Source of the DNA: Candidatus Magasanikiibacteriota bacterium
GTDB taxonomy: Bacteria > Patescibacteriota > Patescibacteriia > Magasanikbacterales > GWA2-37-8
Reading direction: 5' to 3'
DNA length: 64,000 bases
Assembly: GCA_943359595.1 (NCBI GenBank)
Contig: CALRIA010000003.1
Coordinates: 3,179 to 67,178 of the forward strand
Shown here: positions 6,957 to 44,384 of the stretch, one piece after another
Numbering within the stretch: the first letter of the stretch is position 1
How the letters are laid out: the number at the start of each line of letters is the position of its first letter
Notes under the pieces: model-generated
What the model was told of the DNA's origin: nothing
Databases searched by the model: none
What the model saw: only the letters and a program-made list of their open reading frames with translations
Position numbers and translations under genes: made by a program

Positions 6957-8678
6957 ATGCTTTCAGCCAAAACACTAAAATCCGTATTGAATAAGTTAGA
7001 CAAAAAAGTCGGCAACCGTCAGCTAACTGAGGCACAAGAAAAGGCTGAAAATACTCACAAAACACTTGAAGAAGTGTTAATTTCAGATGCTCTAGTGGAG
7101 GAAAGTGAATTATACCAAAAAGCGGCCCTAGTTTTGAATGTGCCATTAATTAATTTAAAAGGCAAAGAAATCAAAAAAGATATTTTGAACCTCATTCCTG
7201 GTCCAGTGGCTGGAACACATCAGGTCGTGGCCTTTGAAAAAGACAAAGATCAGCTAAAGTTAGCCATGACTGACCCAACCGATATCCAAACAATTGAATT
7301 CTTACGACGTAAAACCGGTTTAGAACCAGTTGTCTATATCACTACCCCAAGCGATCTAAAAGATGCCGTTCGACGCTATCATGCTGAGTTAAAAGATGAG
7401 TTTTTGGTTGTTAAACAAGAGTCTGGCGAAGGTGTTGCTCAAGGAGATCTCAAAAAAGCCGCCGAAGAACTACCTATTATTAACATTGTAAACAGTATTT
7501 TAGAACATGCGGTATACGAAAATGCTTCAGATATTCATATTGAACCAGAAGAAAAAGAAGTAGCAATCAGATATCGCATTGATGGTATTTTAAAAGCCAT
7601 TATGACTCTTCCAAAAAATGTTCAGAGTGGCATTACAGCTAGAATAAAAATTCTATCCAACCTAAAATTGGATGAACATATGGTTCCTCAAGACGGTCGT
7701 TTCAAAATTCAGATCCAAGATGAAAAATTAGCTTTTCGTGTATCAATTATACCAGTTTATGATGGAGAAAAAATTGTTATGCGCTTATTGCGTGAAGGCA
7801 CAAAATCGCTTACCTTAGAAGAACTAGGTTTTTTGGAAAGTGCCAAAAATAAGCTAGAATCAGCTATAAAAAAGCCACATGGGATGATATTGGTTACCGG
7901 ACCAACTGGTTCGGGAAAAACTACCACGCTATACTCGGTGTTGGGAATATTAAACCAACCAGGAGTAAATATCTCAACAGTAGAAGATCCTATCGAATAT
8001 CGCGTCAATGGGGTTAACCAGAGCCAAATCAACCCTAAGGTTGGGTTTACTTTTGCCAATGGCTTACGCTCTCTCTTGCGCCAAGATCCAAACATCATAA
8101 TGGTTGGGGAAATCCGTGACCAAGAAACTGCTGACATTTCTATCAATGCCGCCATGACTGGTCACTTGGTACTTTCTACCCTACATACCAACGATGCCCC
8201 AACGACCTTGCCGCGTCTCATAGACATGGGGATTCCACCATTTTTAGTAGCGTATACGGTAAACATAATTGTCGCTCAACGTTTGGTGCGTAAAATTTGT
8301 CCTTATTGTAAAAAAGAATTTATTTTAGAAGGAGCCGCTCTAGATGAATTGGCCAAGATGTTTGAGATCAAAAAATTATCTGAACTTTTCAAACAAAATA
8401 TCAAAGATTTCGATACCAAAATTAATTCTTTGTCATTTTATCAAGGTGCAGGTTGTATGCGTTGTGGTCAAACTGGCTACAAAGGACGTATGGGAATTTA
8501 TGAAGTAATGGAAATTGACGAAGGCATGGCCAAAAAAATCAATGAACGTGCGCCAGCTGATGAAATAAAGAAATATGCCAGAGAGCACGGCATGACAACC
8601 ATGTTGGAAGATGGATTGGTCAAAGCAAAACTTGGTGTTACATCTATCAATGAAATATTACGCGTCACCAAAGAATAA
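6957..8678 (+). CDS. pilB: Type IV pilus assembly ATPase PilB/GspE family
   Basis: N-terminal GSPII_E_N-like region, Walker A 'GPTGSGKTTTLYS', Asp/His boxes, C-terminal tetracysteine 'CPYC...CMRCGQTG'. Confidence 0.9.
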   Translation: MLSAKTLKSVLNKLDKKVGNRQLTEAQEKAENTHKTLEEVLISDALVEESELYQKAALVLNVPLINLKGKEIKKDILNLIPGPVAGTHQVVAFEKDKDQLKLAMTDPTDIQTIEFLRRKTGLEPVVYITTPSDLKDAVRRYHAELKDEFLVVKQESGEGVAQGDLKKAAEELPIINIVNSILEHAVYENASDIHIEPEEKEVAIRYRIDGILKAIMTLPKNVQSGITARIKILSNLKLDEHMVPQDGRFKIQIQDEKLAFRVSIIPVYDGEKIVMRLLREGTKSLTLEELGFLESAKNKLESAIKKPHGMILVTGPTGSGKTTTLYSVLGILNQPGVNISTVEDPIEYRVNGVNQSQINPKVGFTFANGLRSLLRQDPNIIMVGEIRDQETADISINAAMTGHLVLSTLHTNDAPTTLPRLIDMGIPPFLVAYTVNIIVAQRLVRKICPYCKKEFILEGAALDELAKMFEIKKLSELFKQNIKDFDTKINSLSFYQGAGCMRCGQTGYKGRMGIYEVMEIDEGMAKKINERAPADEIKKYAREHGMTTMLEDGLVKAKLGVTSINEILRVTKE

Positions 8679-8682
8679 ATTT

Positions 8683-9792
8683 ATGGAGGAAAAAAGAAAT
8701 AAAATTCCATCACTACTCAAACAAAAACTAATACATTTTTTTAGCTTTTTTTTGAGTCATATTTCTTTTGTTCAAAAAATATTATTTGTATTTCATTTAC
8801 AAATAATGACTAAAGCCGGTTTATCAATAGTCGCCTCTTTAAAAATATTAAGCGAAGAACTAGAAAATAAACAATTTAAAATCATCATCAAAGAAATTAA
8901 AAGTGAAGTCGAAAAAGGCCGTCAACTAAGTGATGTATTAGCCGAATATCCAAAAGTTTTTCCGCCAATATATGTTACTATGATTGCTGCTGGCGAAGCT
9001 GCTGGTAAAATGGAGGAAGCTCTGACCCAAGTAGCAACTCAGATGAAAAAAAGTCATGAGCTATCTTCACATATTCGTGGTGCAATGATTTATCCAGCTG
9101 TCATACTAGTAGCCATTTTAGGAATATCGATTGAGATGGTCTTTTTTATTTTACCAAAAATTATGGTAATGTTTGAAGATTTTAAATCCGAGCTACCTTT
9201 GGCTACAAAAATTTTAATTACTACGGTAAAATTTACTCAAAATTACGGTATCTATTTATTAATTGGTATTATTTTTTCAATTATTTTATTTTTTTTGGCA
9301 CTCAAAAATATTACATTTAAAAAATCAGTTCATCATTTTACACTTAAACTTCCAATTTTTGGTAATATAATTAAAAAAATAAATCTAGCTCGCTTTACTT
9401 TAACTTTATCCTCCCTACTAGAAAGTACTATTCCAATCGTAGAAGCGGTAAAAATTACCGCTACTGTCCAAACTAACCTAATGTACCATGATAGTTTGAT
9501 GGAAGTCAGCGAAGCGCTCAAACGTGGCGATACTCTTTCCAAAATATTAATGAACTATCCAGAAATTTTTCCACCGATGGTTACTGAAATGATAATGGTG
9601 GGAGAAGAAGCTGGAAAGATGGACGATATGTTGAAAGAATTAGCCGAATATTATGGTAATGAAATTGACTCAACCATGAAAAATTTTTCTGTGATTATTG
9701 AACCGGTAATTATCGTAGTGCTAGGTTTGGTGGTTGCTGGTATTGCCGTGGCTGTAATTATGCCAATGTATTCTTTGGCTCAAAATTTCTAA
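8683..9792 (+). CDS. pilC: Type IV pilus platform protein PilC/GspF family
   Basis: Duplicated GspF-type domains ('EYPKVFPPIYVTMIAAGEAAGKMEEAL' and 'NYPEIFPPMVTEMIMVGEEAGKMDDML') and three TM segments. The start is taken at the ATG after the pilB stop rather than the upstream in-frame ATG at 8611. Confidence 0.85.
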   Translation: MEEKRNKIPSLLKQKLIHFFSFFLSHISFVQKILFVFHLQIMTKAGLSIVASLKILSEELENKQFKIIIKEIKSEVEKGRQLSDVLAEYPKVFPPIYVTMIAAGEAAGKMEEALTQVATQMKKSHELSSHIRGAMIYPAVILVAILGISIEMVFFILPKIMVMFEDFKSELPLATKILITTVKFTQNYGIYLLIGIIFSIILFFLALKNITFKKSVHHFTLKLPIFGNIIKKINLARFTLTLSSLLESTIPIVEAVKITATVQTNLMYHDSLMEVSEALKRGDTLSKILMNYPEIFPPMVTEMIMVGEEAGKMDDMLKELAEYYGNEIDSTMKNFSVIIEPVIIVVLGLVVAGIAVAVIMPMYSLAQNF

Positions 9793-9794
9793 AT

Positions 9795-10874
9795 ATGTTT
9801 AATAATAATCCATTTGAAGGGGCATTTGGCTTGGATATAGGTGACCTATCTTTAAAATTAGTACAATTATCTTCTCCTTCCACCTTCAGTTATGACCATC
9901 GCTACAAAATAGAACACATGACAAGTATTACCTTGCCACCTGGTTATATTGTTAATGGCGAAATCCAACAGCCAGAGATGGTTCGACACAAACTATTGCA
10001 ATTGCTTGGAAAAAGTGGGCATGGAGAAAAAATTAATTCACCGTGGGTAGTGGCTGATCTACCAGAACCAAAAACTTTTCTAACCTCAATAGAAATAGAT
10101 ATACCGCCAGAACAAATTACTCAAGAAGACATTGAATATCAATGCCAAAAACATCTTCCGTTTGATCTACAAGAAGCCTATTTAGATTGGCAAATAATTC
10201 CACTACATGAAAAAACGCGGTTTACCAGAGTTTTAATTGGCGCTACTCCAAAAACCATTGCTGATTCATATACTTATTTATTAGAGAGCGTCGGTCTTCA
10301 ACCGGTTGCTTTGGAGGTAGAATCTCTAGCTATCGCCAGGTCGCTAATTAATGAAGAAAATGTTGCTGGAGCAATTTTAGATATTGGAGCCACCAGATCA
10401 TCTGTAATTATCTATGATGCAGGCGGTGTACGCTTTAGCACTACCATAAATTTTTCTGGAGAAATAATTAATATGGCTCTTATCCAACAATTAAAAATTA
10501 CCTACGATGAGGCCGAAGATTTAAAAATTAAAAATGGAATTAATTATACAAAAGAAAAATCTGACTACCTAAAAATTATAGATGAGCTTATCAATAATTT
10601 GATAATCGAAATTAAAAAAACTATTATCTATTACCATGACCATTATCCTCAAACTACGCCAATTGAACAAGTTGAGCTTTGTGGCGGCATGGCTATGATG
10701 CAGAATTTACTACCAACTTTGGCTCGTCGATTAAAAATAAAATTTAAACTAGGCAATGCTTGGAAAAATATTAAAACTGAAAAACTAACGGATAGTCAAA
10801 AAAATCGTGAACTTACTATGGTTTCAGCAACCGGCTTAGCTCTACGCGCTATGATAAACCCATACAACGATTAA
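9795..10874 (+). CDS. pilM: Type IV pilus assembly protein PilM (actin-like)
   Basis: 'FGLDIGDLSLKLVQL' N-terminus, ASKHA-fold length, position after pilC. Confidence 0.75.
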   Translation: MFNNNPFEGAFGLDIGDLSLKLVQLSSPSTFSYDHRYKIEHMTSITLPPGYIVNGEIQQPEMVRHKLLQLLGKSGHGEKINSPWVVADLPEPKTFLTSIEIDIPPEQITQEDIEYQCQKHLPFDLQEAYLDWQIIPLHEKTRFTRVLIGATPKTIADSYTYLLESVGLQPVALEVESLAIARSLINEENVAGAILDIGATRSSVIIYDAGGVRFSTTINFSGEIINMALIQQLKITYDEAEDLKIKNGINYTKEKSDYLKIIDELINNLIIEIKKTIIYYHDHYPQTTPIEQVELCGGMAMMQNLLPTLARRLKIKFKLGNAWKNIKTEKLTDSQKNRELTMVSATGLALRAMINPYND

Positions 10875-10875
10875 T

Positions 10876-11403
10876 ATGTTACCATCTAAAATTAATATTC
10901 TATCACCTAACAAAAAAAGTCTTTTAGAAAAATTGATTAAATTTATTTTTTTTAAAGAAATGGTAGAAATTATTTTACTAGTAGCGGCCTTTCTATCAGT
11001 CGTTCTATTATGGAGTTGGTTTGCGTTACAAAATCAATTTAATGACTTATCTCAAAGTGCCATGCTCGTAAATAGGGAATATTCTCATTATAACCAAGAA
11101 ATTAGAAAAATAAATACTTTAATTAAACAATTTAATTCAGCCAACAAAAACTACACGCCACTAACAGCAAAAATTTTGGAGCTGATCGAAAAACTACCAA
11201 ATGAAATAAAAATAAATTCATTATCTATTAACCAAAAAACAAATATAATAACTATTTCTGGAATGGCCAAAACTCGCGGTTCATTATTGGACTATCAGGC
11301 AACATTAAAAGATTATTCCTGGCTAAAAACAGTCCAAACTCCAACTTCTCAGTTATTTCAAAAAGAAAATGTTAATTTTGAAATTAAAGCCAGCCAAAAA
11401 TAA
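10876..11403 (+). CDS. pilN: PilN-like pilus assembly protein
   Basis: Single N-terminal TM followed by a coiled-coil/periplasmic region. Gene order pilM-N-O. Confidence 0.6.
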   Translation: MLPSKINILSPNKKSLLEKLIKFIFFKEMVEIILLVAAFLSVVLLWSWFALQNQFNDLSQSAMLVNREYSHYNQEIRKINTLIKQFNSANKNYTPLTAKILELIEKLPNEIKINSLSINQKTNIITISGMAKTRGSLLDYQATLKDYSWLKTVQTPTSQLFQKENVNFEIKASQK

Positions 11404-11407
11404 AAAT

Positions 11408-11947
11408 ATGAAATTAAATACTGAAAAAAGAACTATTATAATACTGACGATTTTTTCGGTCATTACTTTGATTATAATTTTCCAAATAATATTTCCCACT
11501 ATTCGATATATTAAAAATCTAGAACAAGACACCAATAATCTTAGAGAATATTTAGAAAAAAAATACGAAAATACCAAGACAATACGCACCTCAAAGAAAA
11601 AAATTGAAGAAATTAAGTCAACAGTGGCCAAATATCCTGATTATTTATTTTATCATGGTGACGAACTCAAATTAATCACAACTTTAGAAAATATAGCCAC
11701 CAGAAACCAAATAATTCAAAAAATTGATAATTCAAACTTGGATAAGTTGGACGATAAACTCAATCTTTCTCTAACTTTAAATGGTGATTACCAAAATATC
11801 TTAAAGTATTTATCAGCGTTGGAAAAAGAAAATTATTATTTTATCATCACTAATCTACAGCTTTCTTCCGCTTTTAGTCCACAAAATAATAATACCAACG
11901 CTACTATAATGAATTTGGATCTAATACTATATGTCAATCAACACTAA
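11408..11947 (+). CDS. pilO: PilO-like pilus assembly protein
   Basis: N-terminal TM and coiled-coil segment. Start taken at the internal ATG after the pilN stop. Confidence 0.55.
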   Translation: MKLNTEKRTIIILTIFSVITLIIIFQIIFPTIRYIKNLEQDTNNLREYLEKKYENTKTIRTSKKKIEEIKSTVAKYPDYLFYHGDELKLITTLENIATRNQIIQKIDNSNLDKLDDKLNLSLTLNGDYQNILKYLSALEKENYYFIITNLQLSSAFSPQNNNTNATIMNLDLILYVNQH

Positions 11948-33047: not shown

Positions 33048-33719
33048 TTACCACTCTATTCCTCTTTTCCCATGTTTTCTTAAATATTCATTACATTTAG
33101 AAAAATGTTTACAGCCAAAAAAACCAGAGTAGGCTGACAATGGTGAAGGATGCGGTGCCTCCAAAATCAAATGTTTTTTACTATCAATCAACGTCTTTTT
33201 ACTTCTAGCATAACTCCCCCAAAGCATAAAAACGACGTGCTCTCGTTTATCGGAAATCGTTTTAACGACCATATCGGTAAGCTCTTCCCAACCCTTTTCT
33301 CGATGTGAAGCCGGATTATTGGCCACTACAGTTAGAATAGCGTTTAAAAGTAAGACACCTTGTTTGGCCCATGATATCAAATTCCCAGTTGTAAGATCTT
33401 TTCTTATCCCCAAATCATTTTGTATTTCTTTGTAAATATTTTGTAGTGACGGTGGCACCTTAACATTTTCCGGTACAGAAAAACTGAGACCATGTGCTTG
33501 ATTTTCACCATGATAAGGATCTTGGCCCAAAATTACCACCTGAACATTGGAAAAAGTGGTTAACCAAAAGGCTCTAAAAATATCCTGCGGTTTTGGGTAG
33601 ATAGATTTTTTAACATATTCTTCACGCACAAAATCAGCCAATTTCTGAAAACGTTCCGAAGAAAAATAATCCTGTAATATTTTCGCCCATTCTGGCTCAA
33701 TATCTACCTGTTTTGACAT
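33048..33719 (-). CDS. ung: Uracil-DNA glycosylase, family 1
   Basis: 'VVILGQDPYHGENQAHGLSFSV' and 'HPSPLSA' motifs. Confidence 0.9.
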   Translation of the reverse strand: MSKQVDIEPEWAKILQDYFSSERFQKLADFVREEYVKKSIYPKPQDIFRAFWLTTFSNVQVVILGQDPYHGENQAHGLSFSVPENVKVPPSLQNIYKEIQNDLGIRKDLTTGNLISWAKQGVLLLNAILTVVANNPASHREKGWEELTDMVVKTISDKREHVVFMLWGSYARSKKTLIDSKKHLILEAPHPSPLSAYSGFFGCKHFSKCNEYLRKHGKRGIEW

Positions 33720-33799
33720 AGTTGTAATAAAATTATTATTATATATTATTCTATCATGAATGATTGTTTAGACAAAATTACAAAGTGAGAAACAAAAAA

Positions 33800-33865
33800 A
33801 TATTTTAAACACAAAGACCCTCGCTCGGACATCCACTTTTTCAAGTGAACACCGAGACGAGGGTC
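33800..33865 (-). terminator. Long hairpin (gaccctcgctcgg / ccgagacgagggtc) followed by a T-rich run on the minus strand
   Basis: Roughly 13-bp stem with a 1-nt bulge. Downstream of the 33928..34350 ORF. Confidence 0.45.
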
Positions 33866-33927
33866 TAAGAAACCAAGGACCGGACATACGACACCGAAGT
33901 GCCGAGAATCCGAATGACCAAAGTTTC

Positions 33928-34350
33928 TTACTCGCAAGCGACGAGAACGCCGGCGAGTGGAAAAAGTCGATCGCGGAGAGCGCCCAGGTGGACGTACGGA
34001 CGACCACCCTGGATGAAAGCAAACGGCGCAAAGACGACATCTTCCGCGTCCACCACCCGAGCATTCTCGCTGATTGCAAGAACGCACCACCATTTTTTCA
34101 TCTCCTTGGGATGATTTTGAAGGACGTCGGCGAGATCGCCAACGTTCCCGAGAGTAAACCCAGCAGTCGTGAGACGCACGGCGGCTTGTTCGCCCGTCTC
34201 GTTACTGAGACACGGTTCCACCCGTAAATTCACACCAGTGCCATTGACCCAGTTGCACTTCTCGAAGAGCGACTGGAGGTTCTCACTAGAATCGGCGGCG
34301 CCACATTTGCCTTTTATTGCCAGGTTGAACTGGCCGGTTGTATTTTTCAT
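33928..34350 (-). CDS. Hypothetical protein encoded in a GC-rich islet (140 aa from the ATG; 143 aa from the GTG)
   Basis: AGGAG-N8-ATG ribosome-binding site, balanced amino-acid composition with several Cys, hairpin terminator downstream. GC is far above the flanking DNA. No recognisable family. Confidence 0.45.
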   Translation of the reverse strand: MKNTTGQFNLAIKGKCGAADSSENLQSLFEKCNWVNGTGVNLRVEPCLSNETGEQAAVRLTTAGFTLGNVGDLADVLQNHPKEMKKWWCVLAISENARVVDAEDVVFAPFAFIQGGRPYVHLGALRDRLFPLAGVLVACE

Positions 34351-34758
34351 CGTATACACTCCTGCTCACAGGTAATCCACCCCAACGAAAGACACTACCA
34401 GTGTCTAACCCCAAAATGGTACGCCTATAAGCACAACAGACTAGAAACAATTTCCAGCCTTCTTTCTATCTTATTTAGCTTAAATAAGGCAAAAAGAAAA
34501 CTAGTAATAATATTAAAGAATGGATTATTTGGCTAGAATAACAAGTGAGTATAGCATAAAATGATGATTTTGTCAATAATATGTCCTGTAAAGATGTTCT
34601 AACTGCATATTTATGGCTATGCTTAAAGAAAAAGCGACGCACTTGCGTCGCTCAATCTGTCTTGGCGGTGTGTGATTGACGTTATCAGAACTAATGTTAC
34701 AACCTCTCCATGACAACTTAAAATTCCTCATCTGCGCGCTTTAGGTAATTCGCTGTAA

Positions 34759-35517
34759 TTATGATACCAGCTTTTGCATTTTTAGAACACCGTTTACATC
34801 AATAATCTGTATATTTTTATCTTTTATGAAATCCCTAACGCCTTGACTAACTCCGCCTAGACTAATAATAATTCCTTGCGTTACCCCAGCGGATTGCATT
34901 GCTCCATACAGATCTCTAGCGACATGAGGCCCAACTTGTTTTTTATGCGCCTTGCATTGTACAAATATTTTGAAATCATTATCAGCTGTAAGTATTAAAT
35001 CAATACCGCCGTCCCCAGTGCTTTTTGTCTTAATGACCGATGAAAAATGTCCAGATTTTTGAAACAATTTTGAAACAGCTTCCTCAAATTCAAAACCTCC
35101 TAATGAGAACCAATATCCCGCTTCAGCCTTTTTTGCTTCTAAAAGTTTTTCTTTCTTCGCATCTTCCAAGACTTCCTCGTAAGTGTTTAAAGCTTTTAAA
35201 TATTTTGAATAACGCATGCCAAGTGGGTCCATTTTCTTATTAGGAAAAACTAAACTTCCAACAAGTAGCCCAATTATTGGTAAATTTAAATCAAGCCTTT
35301 TCCTTCGATTTTCAAGTTGTTCATTAAGGACTGCGGTCTTCTGATTCTTTTCATACGCTATTTGGGCCATTTTTAACTGTTCAGGATCATATAGCTGAAA
35401 ATTCTCAGCAATAGGCTGTTTTAAGTCTTGCCCTAGTATGGTTCTCTGGTCCATCTTTCGTAATTCTTGTATGAAATCCGAAAAAACATCGTCTTTTAGT
35501 TTATCGCCATTATTCAT
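34759..35517 (-). CDS. Mrr_cat (restriction endonuclease-like) domain protein with N-terminal coiled coil
   Basis: 'STGDGGIDLIL...IFVQCKAHKKQVGPHVARDLYGAM' matches the PD-(D/E)xK Mrr catalytic-domain pattern. Confidence 0.6.
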   Translation of the reverse strand: MNNGDKLKDDVFSDFIQELRKMDQRTILGQDLKQPIAENFQLYDPEQLKMAQIAYEKNQKTAVLNEQLENRRKRLDLNLPIIGLLVGSLVFPNKKMDPLGMRYSKYLKALNTYEEVLEDAKKEKLLEAKKAEAGYWFSLGGFEFEEAVSKLFQKSGHFSSVIKTKSTGDGGIDLILTADNDFKIFVQCKAHKKQVGPHVARDLYGAMQSAGVTQGIIISLGGVSQGVRDFIKDKNIQIIDVNGVLKMQKLVS

Positions 35518-35623: not shown

Positions 35624-36250
35624 TTATAAAATCTCAAATTCTAAATTAGACAATCCTAAGCCTTCCAATAATATCTGGTTTATTTTAAATGTCGCTTGAT
35701 TCGCTTTTATTGGGTCATCCGCTAGATCAACAAGCTTTATATTAATACGCCTACTAACCTCAAAAAGTATGTTTTGTAGGTTATTTATTTTATCTGGAGG
35801 ATAGTCGTTTTCTATAGAGGCTTCAATATCAGTTAAACTTTTTGAAAAATCTTCTGCTATTTTATGAATCACTGCTCGCCGATATTTATTAAAATTGTTC
35901 AAAGGTAGGAATATAGTATCACCTTTAATATATTTTTCTAGAATCTTTATCAATGCACCTAGAGGAATATCTGTTTTAATGTTTTTTTCTGTGGTGTTAT
36001 GGACTTTGGCTCTAAGCTTTTCTGCGCTGTCTATAACTCCCTTTAGGGTCTGCTCCATTCTTTGTGATTGAATTAAGAAATAGCCAAGATTGTATCCTTT
36101 TCTAAAATACTCATCATATCGACGTGTTAGTTCATTGCTTCGAATCAAAGTGTTCAATAACTGTATGAGAACAATCTTGTATTCGTAGGCGATGCTTTTA
36201 TCGGCTTCAGTCTGTTGCAACAACGCACGAAGCCCTTCTAGTCTATTCAC
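35624..36250 (-). CDS. Hypothetical protein (208 aa), member of the defence-like gene block
   Basis: ORF with no recognisable motifs. Co-directional within the block. Confidence 0.5.
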   Translation of the reverse strand: MNRLEGLRALLQQTEADKSIAYEYKIVLIQLLNTLIRSNELTRRYDEYFRKGYNLGYFLIQSQRMEQTLKGVIDSAEKLRAKVHNTTEKNIKTDIPLGALIKILEKYIKGDTIFLPLNNFNKYRRAVIHKIAEDFSKSLTDIEASIENDYPPDKINNLQNILFEVSRRINIKLVDLADDPIKANQATFKINQILLEGLGLSNLEFEIL

Positions 36251-36355: not shown

Positions 36356-37582
36356 CTAAGATTGACTATCCATGGTACGAATTTCTTTTTCAAATAATTT
36401 CCGAATTAAATCCCAATCTATTCTATTAACCCTAGCTCCCGACGGATGAATCACTGCAAATAGTTTATACTTGCCGAATTCTGCCCTTACTGCCATCCGT
36501 CCACCATTAGATTTCCGCGTATATAAAACAGCTTCATTTTGTACAGAACCAAAAATATCTTTTAATCGATCATACGTCTCAATACCCAGAACCAAAATTC
36601 TTTGCGGTCGAAGTGTCTCGATCATTTCTTTTACTTTAGAAAAGCTAAATTCTTCCATCTTAATCCTCGTCTGCTGAGGTATATTTTGTCTCCAAATACT
36701 AATTGTAGGCGCACGGAAAAATATTAAAGGGAATACCACACTGCTCTTAAGAAGATCCAACCCTCCATCAAAATCAAAGAAACTTCTTACCCTTCGTGCC
36801 ATTGGATAGACACCTAGTAGATATTCGTTGGAATTTGGTAATTGAAAATTACTTTCTTCAAAGGCGGCTCTATTCTCTTGCGCAAAATCTTCTTCAGTAC
36901 CGCCCGGCTGATAGCTAATAATCATTAACGGAGGATCAACAACGACTGGTGAATAAAACACTTTAATGCCGTGCCTCCAAAAAGAATATTTATTTTTGTA
37001 TTCCGAATAGACATCTTTTGTTATATTTTCTGCCCATGTTTTTACGTTCATCATTTTCGGAAATTCAATGGGTAATTTACTAAGTTTATCACAAAAAATT
37101 TTTCCAAAACTGCCTTCGCAAATATCCTTATCATTTAACATCGTTTCCTTTACTTTCATCCAGTTTGCGCCAAAAAAATTCTGTTTCTCGAAAAACTCTT
37201 TGAAATCTTGCGCAAAAAATTCAGAAAATTTTTCAAAAGTAGTAAGTCCTCCCGCACGTTGTGCGATATCCCACGGCCTAGCGTTTATATTAGTAATGCC
37301 ATATTCAATTTTAGGATATAAGGTAATTGATTGAAAGTTTTTATATTCACTTTTGAAATAGGTGTACATTACTTGATCGATAAGAACAGTAAAGGCGAGG
37401 CAATACAAAAATCGCATATTATGCCAAGGATCGGTTTTGACATGAGACATAGTATTTTCATTCAAATCTTGAATTGGAATATAAACACCCTCGCCAGGAT
37501 GTTGATAAGTCATTTTTGATTTTGCCATAAATTCGGCAAAATCGTTGCGAAAATTTTTATAGTAGTAATCTTTGGGTTCCAT
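36356..37582 (-). CDS. Hypothetical 408-aa protein. The C-terminal half has uracil-DNA-glycosylase-superfamily-like motifs.
   Basis: 'ISYQPGGTEEDF' resembles the UDG family 4/5 motif A (G-E-x-P-G-x-x-E-D). 'VIHPSGARVNR' resembles motif B (HPS...). The two are about 155 aa apart. The gene starts 5 nt after the RloB-like gene. Confidence 0.55.
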   Translation of the reverse strand: MEPKDYYYKNFRNDFAEFMAKSKMTYQHPGEGVYIPIQDLNENTMSHVKTDPWHNMRFLYCLAFTVLIDQVMYTYFKSEYKNFQSITLYPKIEYGITNINARPWDIAQRAGGLTTFEKFSEFFAQDFKEFFEKQNFFGANWMKVKETMLNDKDICEGSFGKIFCDKLSKLPIEFPKMMNVKTWAENITKDVYSEYKNKYSFWRHGIKVFYSPVVVDPPLMIISYQPGGTEEDFAQENRAAFEESNFQLPNSNEYLLGVYPMARRVRSFFDFDGGLDLLKSSVVFPLIFFRAPTISIWRQNIPQQTRIKMEEFSFSKVKEMIETLRPQRILVLGIETYDRLKDIFGSVQNEAVLYTRKSNGGRMAVRAEFGKYKLFAVIHPSGARVNRIDWDLIRKLFEKEIRTMDSQS

Positions 37583-37586
37583 ATTA

Positions 37587-38129
37587 TTATTTTCCTTCCA
37601 TTATTGTTACTAATCTACCAAGCACATTGATAGTGCCTCTTTTCTTTTCTAATTTTTCCTTTGGAAACAATTCTTTATATCTATTAACATCTCCCCGTCT
37701 TTGTTTAGCAATATATTTTGATTCAAATTCACTTTTACAAAATGCCGAATTGCTTTGAGTATTTGCGCCTAAAATATTTAACAACAGAAATTCTAAGCAT
37801 GGTGTATTTTCAATCATCTCAATACCTCTATTCTTAGCTTCTTGTCTAGCTTTTTTCATTTCTTCTGCGGATTTATCATTATCCAGAACAACAATTTTTC
37901 TATCAAAAGCACCTGGTATTTTAGACGCATCAACTACTATACTCTTAGCATCTCCACCTTTGCCTTTTCTAATAGTGATGGCAACATTACAATCACAAGC
38001 ATAAATACTCTTTAAATATTTTAAGAACATCTCTTCTCCGAGACCCTCCCCAAAAATTAAAAGTGTTTTACTGGCATGGCGTCTCTTTATTTTAAATGGA
38101 TTAGTGCGGGACATAAAATTTTGGCACAT
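37587..38129 (-). CDS. RloB-like / Toprim-like protein (AbiLii-like)
   Basis: N-terminal 'TLLIFGEGLGEEMFLKYL' and 'VVLDNDK' (DxD) are typical of RloB/OLD-Toprim. Overlaps the upstream ATPase gene by 1 nt. Confidence 0.55.
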   Translation of the reverse strand: MCQNFMSRTNPFKIKRRHASKTLLIFGEGLGEEMFLKYLKSIYACDCNVAITIRKGKGGDAKSIVVDASKIPGAFDRKIVVLDNDKSAEEMKKARQEAKNRGIEMIENTPCLEFLLLNILGANTQSNSAFCKSEFESKYIAKQRRGDVNRYKELFPKEKLEKKRGTINVLGRLVTIMEGK

Positions 38130-39343
38130 TAAAGTTTAGGAATAGCGCCGTATGCCCCTGCTATATATTTTGAATAGTAATTATCATCTGCTCGTACTCC
38201 CGTTACATCATCTAATCGCCAAGCCTCACTTTTACCCTCACTATTTTTTTCGATTAGAATAATTTGATATTTATCAAGGCTATTTAAAATACGATGACTA
38301 TGCGTACTAAATAGCAATTGTGCATTTTTAGGATTAGTATCAGGCTGAACAAACAAATCAAATAATGTTGAAACAATCTCTGGGTGTAAATTGACATCAA
38401 ATTCATCTAAGACAACTACACCGCCATTTGATAGGGCAACTAATATGGATTTTAATAATATAAATAATTGCTTTGTACCAGATGATTCATATTCCATTGG
38501 CAAAAATTCGGTACGACCACTAAAAGAGTGCACTACTTTTACATTTAGTGAAAATCCTTTTTCCTTCTTCTCTTTCTTGATATTAAAGGAATTTAAACCA
38601 AGGTCAAATTGAGATAACAATTTTTCCGCTTCTTTTTTAATTTTTTCATTATCAGATTCGCTGTAAAAATCTAACACTCCCAACAATTGTCGCATTGAGT
38701 CTGCTACGAGATGGTCGCCTAACCAACCAGCCTCCACAACATTTGTTTCGACTTTCTGCCAATAATCTAAAATCTCTTGACTTTCCTTATGATTAAATCG
38801 CACGGCTACACTCACAACACTAGCGTTTGGGCGAAGGGAGTTGCTAAATTCTTTCGGTAAATTAAAATTTTTATCATCCAATTCATACTTTTCACTTGCG
38901 CTATTCCACTGACGAGAAAACACTTTTTTGCTTGTCAATTTTTGATTACTTTTATTTTTTACCATTAATTCTTCGCTAATGATTCGTTTTTCAGTCAAAA
39001 TATAACTATATGTAAAAATATTGCCATTAATTTCAAAGTCGGCAGATAATTCTACTGGTTCTTTTTTATGATCACCAAACATAAACGGCTTGACAGGTAT
39101 TGTTGCCGAAGGACTTATGTTAAACGAGTCTACAATTAACCACTTTAAAAATGGTAACACCTTTAAAATATTGGTTTTACCAGAAGCATTTGGCCCTATC
39201 ACAGTTTCTATTTTAGAAAGGCGCGTACCTGAAGGAGCCAAAAAATAACCATAGTTACTTGGTGCTTTATCATTGACCACAAAATTAACTACGGTTGAAT
39301 CACCAAAAGAATAAAAATTCTTACACGAAAATGAGTGTATCAT
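38129..39343 (-). CDS. AAA_21/ABC-type ATPase (RloA/AbiLi/OLD-N-like)
   Basis: Walker A 'GPNASGKTNILK', Walker B 'VVLDEFDVNLHP', and an 'FSTHS' H-loop-like motif. 404 aa. Confidence 0.7.
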   Translation of the reverse strand: MIHSFSCKNFYSFGDSTVVNFVVNDKAPSNYGYFLAPSGTRLSKIETVIGPNASGKTNILKVLPFLKWLIVDSFNISPSATIPVKPFMFGDHKKEPVELSADFEINGNIFTYSYILTEKRIISEELMVKNKSNQKLTSKKVFSRQWNSASEKYELDDKNFNLPKEFSNSLRPNASVVSVAVRFNHKESQEILDYWQKVETNVVEAGWLGDHLVADSMRQLLGVLDFYSESDNEKIKKEAEKLLSQFDLGLNSFNIKKEKKEKGFSLNVKVVHSFSGRTEFLPMEYESSGTKQLFILLKSILVALSNGGVVVLDEFDVNLHPEIVSTLFDLFVQPDTNPKNAQLLFSTHSHRILNSLDKYQIILIEKNSEGKSEAWRLDDVTGVRADDNYYSKYIAGAYGAIPKL

Positions 39344-39720
39344 ATAATTTTGGTTAATAATTTTTTACTATTTGATTATACATTTTGGCTATTAAAGTAG
39401 TGTTTTTTAATATTGTTTGGATTTGGTATTTCATACGTAATAATAAATTAATGATTATATACAATGGGTAAATAAAGCTTAATTTTAATACAAATATGAA
39501 CTGAAAAGAACAAAGTGTGCTTACTACTAATAACCCTATAAATAGCCAAAATGAACAATCTCATTTATTAGCTCCCTAATACTTAATAGTATACTAAAAT
39601 ATCAGTTGTATGTCAATATCCTACAATATTTTGTATGATATGTCATTATACGTGTATTTTTAGCCACCTTTTCTCCATTTATCCGTTAAAACAGAAATGT
39701 TATCCACAGCCATTTTAACT

Positions 39721-41433: not shown

Positions 41434-42303
41434 ATGCCTATGATTGAACTGTATGACTTTAAACTAATAAAGTCTGGTAAAGAAATCGAGGTGTATGTGT
41501 ATAAAACAAAGAAAATATTAAAGGGCTACACCCGAAAGAAAAACCACACCGAAGAACAAAAGATACTGATAAAAGAAAAACAAGCCCAAGCCAAACAAAA
41601 AGAAGTTGAATATATGGAACTGATGGAAGAATGGGGTTGCGAGCAAGAAGTCGCTGACTTGCACCAAACCCAAAACCAAAAAACCACCTTTTCCATATCT
41701 CGTACTAGAACCAACATTCGCCGTCTCACCAATGCTAACCCACATCTGCGTAAATTCCTCACGCTAACCTTTGCAGAAAGCACGACAGAGCTCTTAGAGG
41801 CCAACCACCTGTTCAACACCGCTATGAAACGAATACTGCGAGCCAAACCAGCCTTTGAATATATCGCCGTCGTTGAATTTCAGAAAGACATTGACTATTA
41901 CGGCAACAAAAAAGAAAAAGGCGGATCTGTTCATTACCACCTATTGTGCAACATTGTCTTGCCCGACAATGCTGATACATTTGCGTGGGAAAGACGGTTT
42001 GCGATGAAGTATTGGAAAAATGGGTTTGTGAAAATACGAGAGGTAAATACTGTAACCAATATGGGTGCGTATTTCTGTAAATATCTTGGAAAAGATATGT
42101 TTGATAAAAGAATGTTTGGCAAAAAGAAATTCTTTTGTTCTCGACAATTAAATAAGCCAGTTGAGATGACTGGCGGTAAAGCAATTAGTTTTTTCAATAA
42201 ATTTGTTAAGCCGACCCTTAAACCGATCTTTGAAAAAACTTTCACCAGTGAATATACTGGCAAGGTGGAGTATTCCGCCTACACTCTTAAAGAAGATTCC
42301 TAA
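41434..42303 (+). CDS. rep: Rolling-circle replication initiator (HUH endonuclease, pC194/Rep_1-like)
   Basis: Motif 1 'FLTLTF', HUH motif 'HYHLL', Tyr motif 'YFCKYLGKD'. Confidence 0.65.
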   Translation: MPMIELYDFKLIKSGKEIEVYVYKTKKILKGYTRKKNHTEEQKILIKEKQAQAKQKEVEYMELMEEWGCEQEVADLHQTQNQKTTFSISRTRTNIRRLTNANPHLRKFLTLTFAESTTELLEANHLFNTAMKRILRAKPAFEYIAVVEFQKDIDYYGNKKEKGGSVHYHLLCNIVLPDNADTFAWERRFAMKYWKNGFVKIREVNTVTNMGAYFCKYLGKDMFDKRMFGKKKFFCSRQLNKPVEMTGGKAISFFNKFVKPTLKPIFEKTFTSEYTGKVEYSAYTLKEDS

Positions 42304-42348
42304 TTAAGTTTAAACATATTTTTATGGCTTTCATCAACACAAAACGGT

Positions 42349-42531
42349 ATGCAATTAACGGACAATTTTGTCCTGAAATTCCAGACGATCTACGAGGCGG
42401 AATTTCATGAGAAATTGAGCTACGAAAAAGCGTATGCAGAATGTATGGACATGTTCGTCCTTGGAAAAATACTATTTAGACCTGTGAGTAAGCAGGATAT
42501 ACACGCTCTTGAATTGAGCAAAGAAAATTGA
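42349..42531 (+). CDS. Hypothetical 60-aa protein between rep and the recombinase gene
   Basis: ORF only. Position suggests an accessory or directionality factor. Confidence 0.35.
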   Translation: MQLTDNFVLKFQTIYEAEFHEKLSYEKAYAECMDMFVLGKILFRPVSKQDIHALELSKEN

Positions 42532-42542
42532 TACTATATGTG

Positions 42543-42657
42543 GGCTTACCCGATACAATACAATAAACGCTATTAAAGACTTTTTTATTTTCATACCAGA
42601 GATGGGCAGTCCTGTCCGATGAAATAGTCTTTTTTAGCTATTTGTGTCGGGTAAGCC
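42543..42657. repeat. 11-bp inverted repeat (ggcttacccga / tcgggtaagcc) bracketing about 93 bp just upstream of the recombinase start
   Basis: Read directly. Confidence 0.55.
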
Positions 42658-42692
42658 AGGGCTGTCCTTTTTTGTTTTTAATCATTTTCATT

Positions 42693-44384
<1,692 letters not shown>

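Follow-up and report, generated by a model that had tools for sequence, protein, structure and literature searches.

The three-gene locus

The window analysed here, a stretch of 64,000 nucleotides (nt) from a Candidatus Magasanikiibacteriota bacterium (assembly GCA_943359595.1, contig CALRIA010000003.1, positions 3,179 to 67,178 of the forward strand), carries at positions 36356-39343 three tightly packed genes on the minus strand. The first encodes an ATPase of the AbiLi type (ABC/AAA_21; 38129-39343, 404 amino acids (aa)), the second a Toprim-like RloB/AbiLii protein (37587-38129 as listed, 180 aa) and the third a protein of 408 aa (36356-37582), whose open reading frame (ORF) proves to be composite. 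The original prediction, made from the letters alone, saw in them a coupled module in which an ATPase-Toprim pair is joined to a protein of the uracil-DNA glycosylase (UDG) superfamily. The ORFs and the DNA at their boundaries bear out the close packing, and all of the motifs that had been quoted (Walker A and B, FSTHS, GEG, DND, QPGG and HPSGAR) are present. Our comparisons indicate that the trio consists of two separately inherited units, an AbiL pair and a putative DNA glycosylase fused to an orphan domain, which lie side by side in what may be a small defence island.

At the first boundary the sequence TAATG links the stop codon of the ATPase gene to the first listed ATG of RloB, with 1 nt in common. 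The 1-nt overlap described earlier holds for that ATG, but gene callers, which give 175 aa, and homologues, whose alignments begin at residue 6, move the RloB start five codons downstream to 38114, and since this is the probable true start, the two genes would be separated by a 14-nt gap instead. The RloB stop codon occupies 37587-37589 and is followed, after 4 nt, by the ATG of the third gene at 37582, with GGAAGGA, resembling a ribosome-binding site, inside the end of RloB just 5' of that ATG. A consensus scan detected no terminator-like site between RloB and the third gene. Independent assemblies of the same genome yield an identical call for the 408-aa ORF and preserve the arrangement of the trio.

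A complete AbiL pair

The assignment of the first two genes to an OLD/AbiL-type pair of AAA_21 and RloB proteins was upheld by profile searches. The ATPase matches PF13304 (AAA_21, E 7e-30) and also PF13175 (AAA_15), and scores against the AbiLi model of PADLOC at E 3.2e-73, while its partner matches PF13707 above the cut-off (E 1.2e-9) and the AbiLii model (E 2e-14). The ATPase also scores with the AriA and PtuA models of PADLOC, which the AbiLi and AbiLii models outscore by a wide margin. Motifs are intact in both proteins: Walker A GPNASGKT (residue 50), Walker B VVVLDE (309) and FSTHS in the ATPase, and the Toprim residues GEG (27) and DND (83) in RloB. More than 2000 homologues of the ATPase were found at E<1e-40, and the best 120 of these (66-82% identity) come mainly from Patescibacteria/Parcubacteria, with some from Bacteroidales, Clostridia, Elusimicrobiota and Nanoarchaeota; viral scans contained no AbiLi copies. 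Two distant plasmid-borne pairs (L036 and L037, 29% identity) comprise an ATPase and RloB only, with unrelated genes after them. As judged from these profiles and homologues, the ATPase and RloB genes form a well-conserved, horizontally spread AbiL cassette that is a complete two-gene system.

A UDG-fold domain in the third gene

The third gene was listed as a single 408-aa protein, and the ORF stands as called, but its recognizable homologues correspond to only about 225 aa of it. Among 5.8 billion proteins searched, 12 relatives were detected, all of which cover residues ~176-408 alone; with lengths of ~225-237 aa, they begin at the position equivalent to M176/M177. When 1.84 billion cluster representatives were searched with a profile, the family grew to 866 clusters (50% identity) at E<=1e-3, with 508 at <=1e-10, nearly all of them stand-alone proteins of 210-240 aa. 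Their source names all read 'hypothetical protein', and a precomputed match to PF03167 exists in only one relative, P0080. The 408-aa protein itself falls below the gathering score of that Pfam model (18.7 bits against a cut-off of 24.3, E 0.0019).

An AlphaFold2 model of the 233-aa domain (residues 176-408; 36356-37057, minus strand), built from 13 sequences, has a mean predicted local distance difference test (pLDDT) score of 91.5 and a predicted template modelling score of 0.89. When it was compared with the PDB by Foldseek, the 50 matches listed, of 51 at E<=0.001, were all chains of the UDG superfamily (family 4, MUG, TDG and UdgX), with 4ZBY at the top. Sequence searches of the PDB with the 408-aa protein and with family profiles gave nothing significant; the best match, to 4zbx (the family-4 UDG of S. 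tokodaii), reached E 0.035 and appeared with the 70-sequence profile only. In the corresponding hidden Markov model alignment, nPGg of the family falls on GEAPG and HPsga on HPaa, and in an hhalign comparison HPSGAR falls on NPSGLS of Escherichia coli MUG. The C-terminal half of the 408-aa protein thus has the UDG fold that had been expected of it, with motif A (SYQPGG, 36899-36916; QPGG is residues 225-228 at 36899-36910) and motif B (HPSGAR, residues 379-384, 36431-36448), both on the minus strand, at equivalent positions.

Conservation across 70 UDG-like sequences defines the signature of the family. Motif A reads [GS]x[NQ]PGG, with N in 42/70 and Q in 27/70 (either in 69/70) and P in 69/70; motif B reads H[PL][ST]G[AS]R (H in 69/70). 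Three further motifs are conserved, [NH]xY (Y in 63/70), SVxx[NP]LIFFR (FFR in 65/70) and GxxT[YF] (G in 68/70). Motif A resembles that of the MUG and SMUG enzymes (families 2 and 3), the variable residue being Q here and N in most members. UDG families 4 and 5, in contrast, possess four conserved Cys residues that bind a 4Fe-4S cluster, and no such set occurs in the 70 sequences, in which the single partly conserved Cys column is occupied by Ser in the 408-aa protein. Judging by these residues, the domain is most likely an active, monofunctional DNA glycosylase without an Fe-S cluster, belonging to a distinct family of the UDG superfamily. The UDG-like part is basic (pI 9.37). No copies of the domain were found in phages or plasmids by tblastn, or in viral scans that included IMG/VR.

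A few members of the family carry N-terminal extensions. P0156 (403 aa) is fused to an N-terminal RiboL-PSP HEPN domain (E 1e-14), and P0094 and P0100 (384 and 360 aa, from high-GC sources) have in common an extension of ~150 aa that differs from the others and belongs to no known family.

An orphan domain, fused here and split in a relative

Residues 1-175 of the 408-aa protein (37058-37582, minus strand), hereafter the N-domain, match no family in Pfam, NCBIfam, PHROGs or PADLOC, and hhalign detected no similarity to the UDG domain; nor do they resemble the HEPN N-terminus of P0156. With a pI of 5.95 the N-domain is slightly acidic, and 19% of its residues are aromatic. A full-length single-sequence AlphaFold2 model was unusable (pLDDT 40.6), and at this low confidence the N-domain appears mostly helical.

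Its sole relative is P0304, a protein of 167 aa that clusters with the 408-aa protein and is encoded on L035, a 1.5-kb metagenome contig from NCBI (JAHZTO010546937.1, assembly GCA_020049755.1). L035 aligns to window positions 37589-37012 without gaps at 91.5% nt identity. The differences number 13, 9 and 27 at the first, second and third codon positions and are therefore concentrated at the third, and the dN/dS of the N-domain is 0.17. The N-domain is a real orphan domain, under purifying selection and separable from the glycosylase part. In L035, a TGA closes its ORF at the codon that reads GGA in the window, and a second in-frame stop, TAA (GAA in the window), precedes the ATG of the UDG-like gene. 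A reading of the TGA as Gly under genetic code 25 was considered and rejected, given the TAA that follows and the agreement of the long ORFs in the window with code 11. The alignment indicates that L035 holds two adjacent genes and that the genome studied here holds their in-frame fusion. Whichever the direction of change, the existence of both fused and split states argues that the N-domain and the UDG-like part work together, and this pairing nominates a two-component glycosylase.

Two cassettes abut within five nucleotides

Co-location in other genomes had been set beforehand as the test of a coupled three-gene module, and it was seen in none of the contexts inspected. When the genes beside the UDG-like gene in the fetched loci were searched with AbiLi, RloB and the N-domain by tblastn, 0 of ~15 distinct contexts contained AbiLi or RloB, and the N-domain was likewise missing from them. 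Conversely, the UDG-like gene was present in 0 of 3 other AbiL contexts, namely the nearest pair and the two plasmid pairs. In the nearest pair (L032-34, 82% aa identity), the downstream genes encode proteins of 60, 157 and 70 aa of no known family. A related-locus search made with one family alignment yielded 3 genome loci and 4 metagenome loci.

The DNA resolves the boundary to within a few bases. Homology between L032 and the window (75% nt identity) extends from 39712, 370 nt 5' of AbiLi, to 37584, at the RloB stop, and no further. It includes a promoter-like site, TTGACA-17-TATACT (39588-39616, minus strand, by consensus scan only), about 245 nt 5' of AbiLi, which travels with the AbiL cassette. 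On the other side, the homology of L035 to the window begins at 37589, 7 nt before the ATG of the N-domain, and is preceded in L035 by purH, a gene that is absent from the window. Because the one homology stops at 37584 and the other starts at 37589, the two cassettes abut within ~5 nt on the minus strand (junction 37584-37589). These breakpoints, together with the contexts above, indicate that the AbiL pair and the N-domain/UDG unit are inherited separately and that the trio is not a conserved unit. Since the two units are inherited separately, the trio is best described as a juxtaposition within a defence island and not as a new three-gene system. The negative result on the proposed system is useful in itself, and a junction resolved to the base pair shows how defence islands are assembled.

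Genomic contexts of the UDG-like family

Elsewhere the UDG-like family occurs in mixed contexts, accessory or defence-like in a close, Patescibacteria-type clade (45-72% identity) and housekeeping-like in some other members, including those of a distant clade (25-29% identity). Within the close clade, L001-3 contain a type I restriction-modification system with embedded OLD and Fic genes, a HARE-HTH/PD-(D/E)XK gene 14 nt upstream of the UDG-like gene and a weak Ogg-HhH-like gene downstream. At L014-17, a NERD gene lies upstream, accompanied by HTH_17 and many small ORFs, and the region looks mobile in L014. At L007, a Rep gene and a serine recombinase gene that extends over a tRNA-Gln stand directly upstream of the UDG-like gene, and at L005 NUDIX and HAD genes are followed by RhuM/Fic. 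Decayed copies complete the accessory picture: one is frameshifted after residue 168 (L019, 392-1067; L020, 478-1153), and another, 91 nt after a tRNA-Ser(cga), is truncated (L012, 6001-6444), its similarity being lost after residue ~112 near a contig end, possibly through faulty assembly. Other neighbourhoods are those of L008 (GrpB and AHSA1 genes), L018 (TPR, YceG, tag and NgoFVII-type restriction genes) and L004 (between mraZ/rsmH and uvrC/uvrA).

In L001, the interval 9250-11447 places the UDG-like gene between the HARE-HTH/PD-(D/E)XK protein and a 249-aa protein (Ogg-HhH, E 1.3e-3), and this island may represent a cluster of genes targeting modified DNA. In the distant clade, a DUF1805 gene always follows the UDG-like gene (L021, L025 and L028, at about 7001-8100), and in L025-L030 DUF1805 is followed by C_GCAxxG_C_C and then by sufC/sufD-like genes, a synteny of the lineage.

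Local neighbourhood and a putative integrative element

Downstream of the trio, co-directional with it, are an orphan gene and a nuclease gene. The former (35624-36250, minus strand), between the UDG-like and Mrr-like genes, encodes a protein of 208 aa with a single RRAVIH motif (Rx4H, HEPN-like); it matches no family in Pfam, NCBIfam, PHROGs or PADLOC and shows no similarity to P0156. The latter (34759-35517, minus strand) encodes an Mrr_cat protein of 252 aa, a type IV restriction-like PD-(D/E)XK nuclease (PF04471, E 1.5e-23) that also matches PDC-S02 and mREase_IV in PADLOC. A terminator-like hairpin (34632-34653, minus strand), found by consensus scan only, follows, and the five co-directional genes (AbiLi, AbiLii, N-domain/UDG, the 208-aa orphan and Mrr_cat) are flanked by this hairpin and the promoter-like site described above. 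Next to a tRNA-Ser(cga) lies a family-1 Ung gene (33048-33719, minus strand; GQDPYH and HPSPLS; PF03167, E 2.8e-18), 2.6 kb downstream of the UDG-like gene, so that two UDG-fold genes occur within 4.5 kb of a small genome.

Between Ung and the Mrr-like gene, ~650 nt at 33780-34470 have a GC content of 51-56% in a genome of 33% GC. No gene is called there, its ORFs have no Pfam match and no Rfam family was found; its predicted folding is strong (z-scores of -6.2 and -5.5 for the minus and plus strands), and it is bracketed by a promoter-like site (34576-34548, minus strand) and by a strong hairpin with a U-run near the 3' end. We regard it as a candidate for a large structured non-coding RNA.

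Upstream of the AbiL pair are two small membrane- or lipoprotein-like ORFs, a LOOT RNA, Rep and a serine recombinase. The LOOT RNA (RF03000; 40879-41004, minus strand) scores 84.5 bits, the gathering score being 46.4, and stands immediately upstream of the divergent Rep; a literature search gave nothing useful on its function. The rolling-circle Rep (41434-42303, plus strand; PF23343) and the large serine recombinase (42642-44384, plus strand; PF00239, PF07508 and PF13408) form a pair (41434-44384) with a PHROGs match to phrog_3419, and the recombinase ORF overlaps a tRNA-Ser(tga) on the opposite strand (44267-44352). The same pair is found in L007 (4420-6673), where the recombinase ORF runs across the tRNA-Gln on the opposite strand; a UDG-like gene is near such an element in both genomes. 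By its gene content, the Rep and serine recombinase pair at a tRNA looks like an integrative element, of a small type that recurs in Patescibacteria. Direct repeats marking att sites were not found, as expected for a serine recombinase.

Interpretation and alternatives

We assign a probability of about 0.5 to the explanation that the locus is a defence island in which an AbiL pair lies next to an independently acting, possibly Brig-like glycosylase fused to an orphan domain. Under this explanation, a small island beside the Rep/serine-recombinase element at the tRNA-Ser of a Patescibacteria-type genome would have received its modules (AbiL, glycosylase and Mrr-type nuclease) independently, packed head to tail, with each acting alone. 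On the model of OLD, PARIS and Gabija-type pairs, the AbiL ATPase would sense infection and then license the RloB/Toprim nuclease. The glycosylase would most likely act without AbiL, and because its neighbours are AbiL, an Mrr-type type IV nuclease and a mobile element, its likeliest job would be to excise a non-canonical base from the DNA of invaders, in the manner of Brig1, Brig2 and Brig3; the N-domain would tune its access to substrate or its regulation. A defence role for the glycosylase alone is plausible, and the signs of defence or accessory function within the close clade (the restriction-modification/OLD/Fic island of L001, NERD in L014, Rep/recombinase in L007, RhuM/Fic in L005 and the decayed copies in L019, L020 and L012) are consistent with it.

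Several observations weigh against this explanation. Housekeeping-like sites are occupied by some members of the family: those of L004 and L018, those of the distant clade with its conserved DUF1805 and suf synteny, and those of two metagenome-assembled genomes in which the UDG-like gene is near a tRNA-Gln. The contexts inspected number ~15 out of 866 clusters, and the split state comes from L035, a 1.5-kb contig. Given the shared strand, the 4-nt spacing and the lack of a terminator, the third gene is likely to be co-transcribed with AbiL, and functional cross-talk is therefore possible. Finally, the hhalign comparison of the family profile with Brig1 (sequence from supplement 1 of PMC11078745) gave a probability of 6.8% over 22 columns only.

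The main rival, to which we give tentative and clearly lesser credence, sees in the UDG-like protein an ordinary glycosylase of base excision repair, acting on uracil, hypoxanthine, xanthine or an oxidized pyrimidine, that happens to stand beside defence genes. It gains from the position of L004 next to the uvr genes, that of L018 near tag, the chromosomal synteny of the distant clade, the conservation of catalytic-type residues as in repair UDGs and the absence of copies from the phages, plasmids and IMG/VR data scanned. A repair role must, however, accommodate the canonical family-1 Ung only 2.6 kb away in a small genome, and contexts in the close clade that are patchy and variable, with a frameshifted and a truncated copy and with restriction-type nucleases and mobile-element genes as repeated neighbours. 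The fusion of P0156 to a RiboL-PSP HEPN domain, of a kind known from conflict systems, likewise counts against a repair role.

A two-part toxin/regulator or element-maintenance cassette, in which the N-domain neutralizes or regulates a potentially genotoxic glycosylase and which serves the mobile element (by addiction or anti-defence) and not host immunity, seems improbable. The two parts do form a two-ORF unit in L035 and a fusion here, the unit occupies different genomic sites in two close relatives, and the N-domain is mildly acidic where the glycosylase is basic (pI 5.95 and 9.37); yet in the rest of the 866 clusters the proteins almost always stand alone and lack a conserved partner upstream, and an antitoxin covalently fused to its toxin would be unusual.

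Less credible still is an integrated three-gene system, in which a single machine is built from the AbiL ATPase-Toprim pair plus the UDG-like protein (the glycosylase leaving abasic sites in modified phage DNA for Toprim to cut, for example, or the ATPase gating the glycosylase): the tight co-directional packing, the 4-nt gap, GGAAGGA, the missing terminator and the stability across assemblies fit such a machine, but the combination was found nowhere else in ~15 UDG-like and 3 AbiL contexts, homology of each module ends at the boundary, purH precedes the third gene in its nearest relative, and AbiL is modelled and found as a self-sufficient pair. We hold it equally improbable that cooperation is specific to this lineage, the newly abutted modules having become one co-transcribed unit, a nascent defence system that combines glycosylase and nuclease. 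The N-domain would in that event target or unmask a hypermodified base in phage DNA, which the fused UDG-fold domain would excise, and the abasic sites would be turned into breaks, or sensed, by the AbiL Toprim nuclease or by the Mrr-type nuclease.

The locus draws attention to an unannotated and fairly large family of the UDG superfamily with a distinct signature. Its Patescibacteria members repeatedly lie near restriction-type nucleases and mobile elements, which makes it a concrete candidate for one more anti-phage DNA glycosylase family in a phylum whose defence biology has barely been explored.

Comparison with known systems

The AbiL abortive-infection system as modelled in PADLOC likewise pairs an AAA_21/AAA_15 ATPase gene with a neighbouring RloB/Toprim-like gene on the same strand, and with its catalytic motifs intact the pair described here differs from it in no essential respect; it is a Patescibacteria-type variant whose ATPase is highly conserved (66-82% identity) over many metagenomic lineages, and here the UDG-like gene follows at 4 nt, as it does not in the other AbiL contexts inspected. 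The combination of an ABC-type ATPase with a Toprim nuclease is common to this locus and to OLD, PARIS (AriA/AriB) and Gabija-type systems. OLD itself unites ATPase and Toprim in a single polypeptide, whereas the locus has two genes, and the OLD-like Toprim family (PF20469) had no Pfam match among the locus proteins.

For the third gene, the appropriate comparison is with the stand-alone UDG-fold anti-phage glycosylases known since 2024, beginning with Brig1 (PMC11078745) and including Brig2 (bioRxiv 10.1101/2025.10.29.685425). As far as sequence comparison, which covers Brig1 only, can indicate, the UDG-like family is not a detectable relative of that enzyme. Part of the UDG-like family stands in housekeeping-like contexts. 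Brig1-3 and the UDG-like family are alike in being compact UDG-fold proteins encoded among defence and mobile genes, and the best structural match of Brig1, 4ZBY (PMC11078745), is also the top Foldseek match of the domain described here. Brig3, moreover, acts with an accessory hydrolase, BapA, encoded in the same operon (PMC13160076), a formal parallel to the N-domain and the UDG-like part, encoded side by side in L035 and as one protein in the window.

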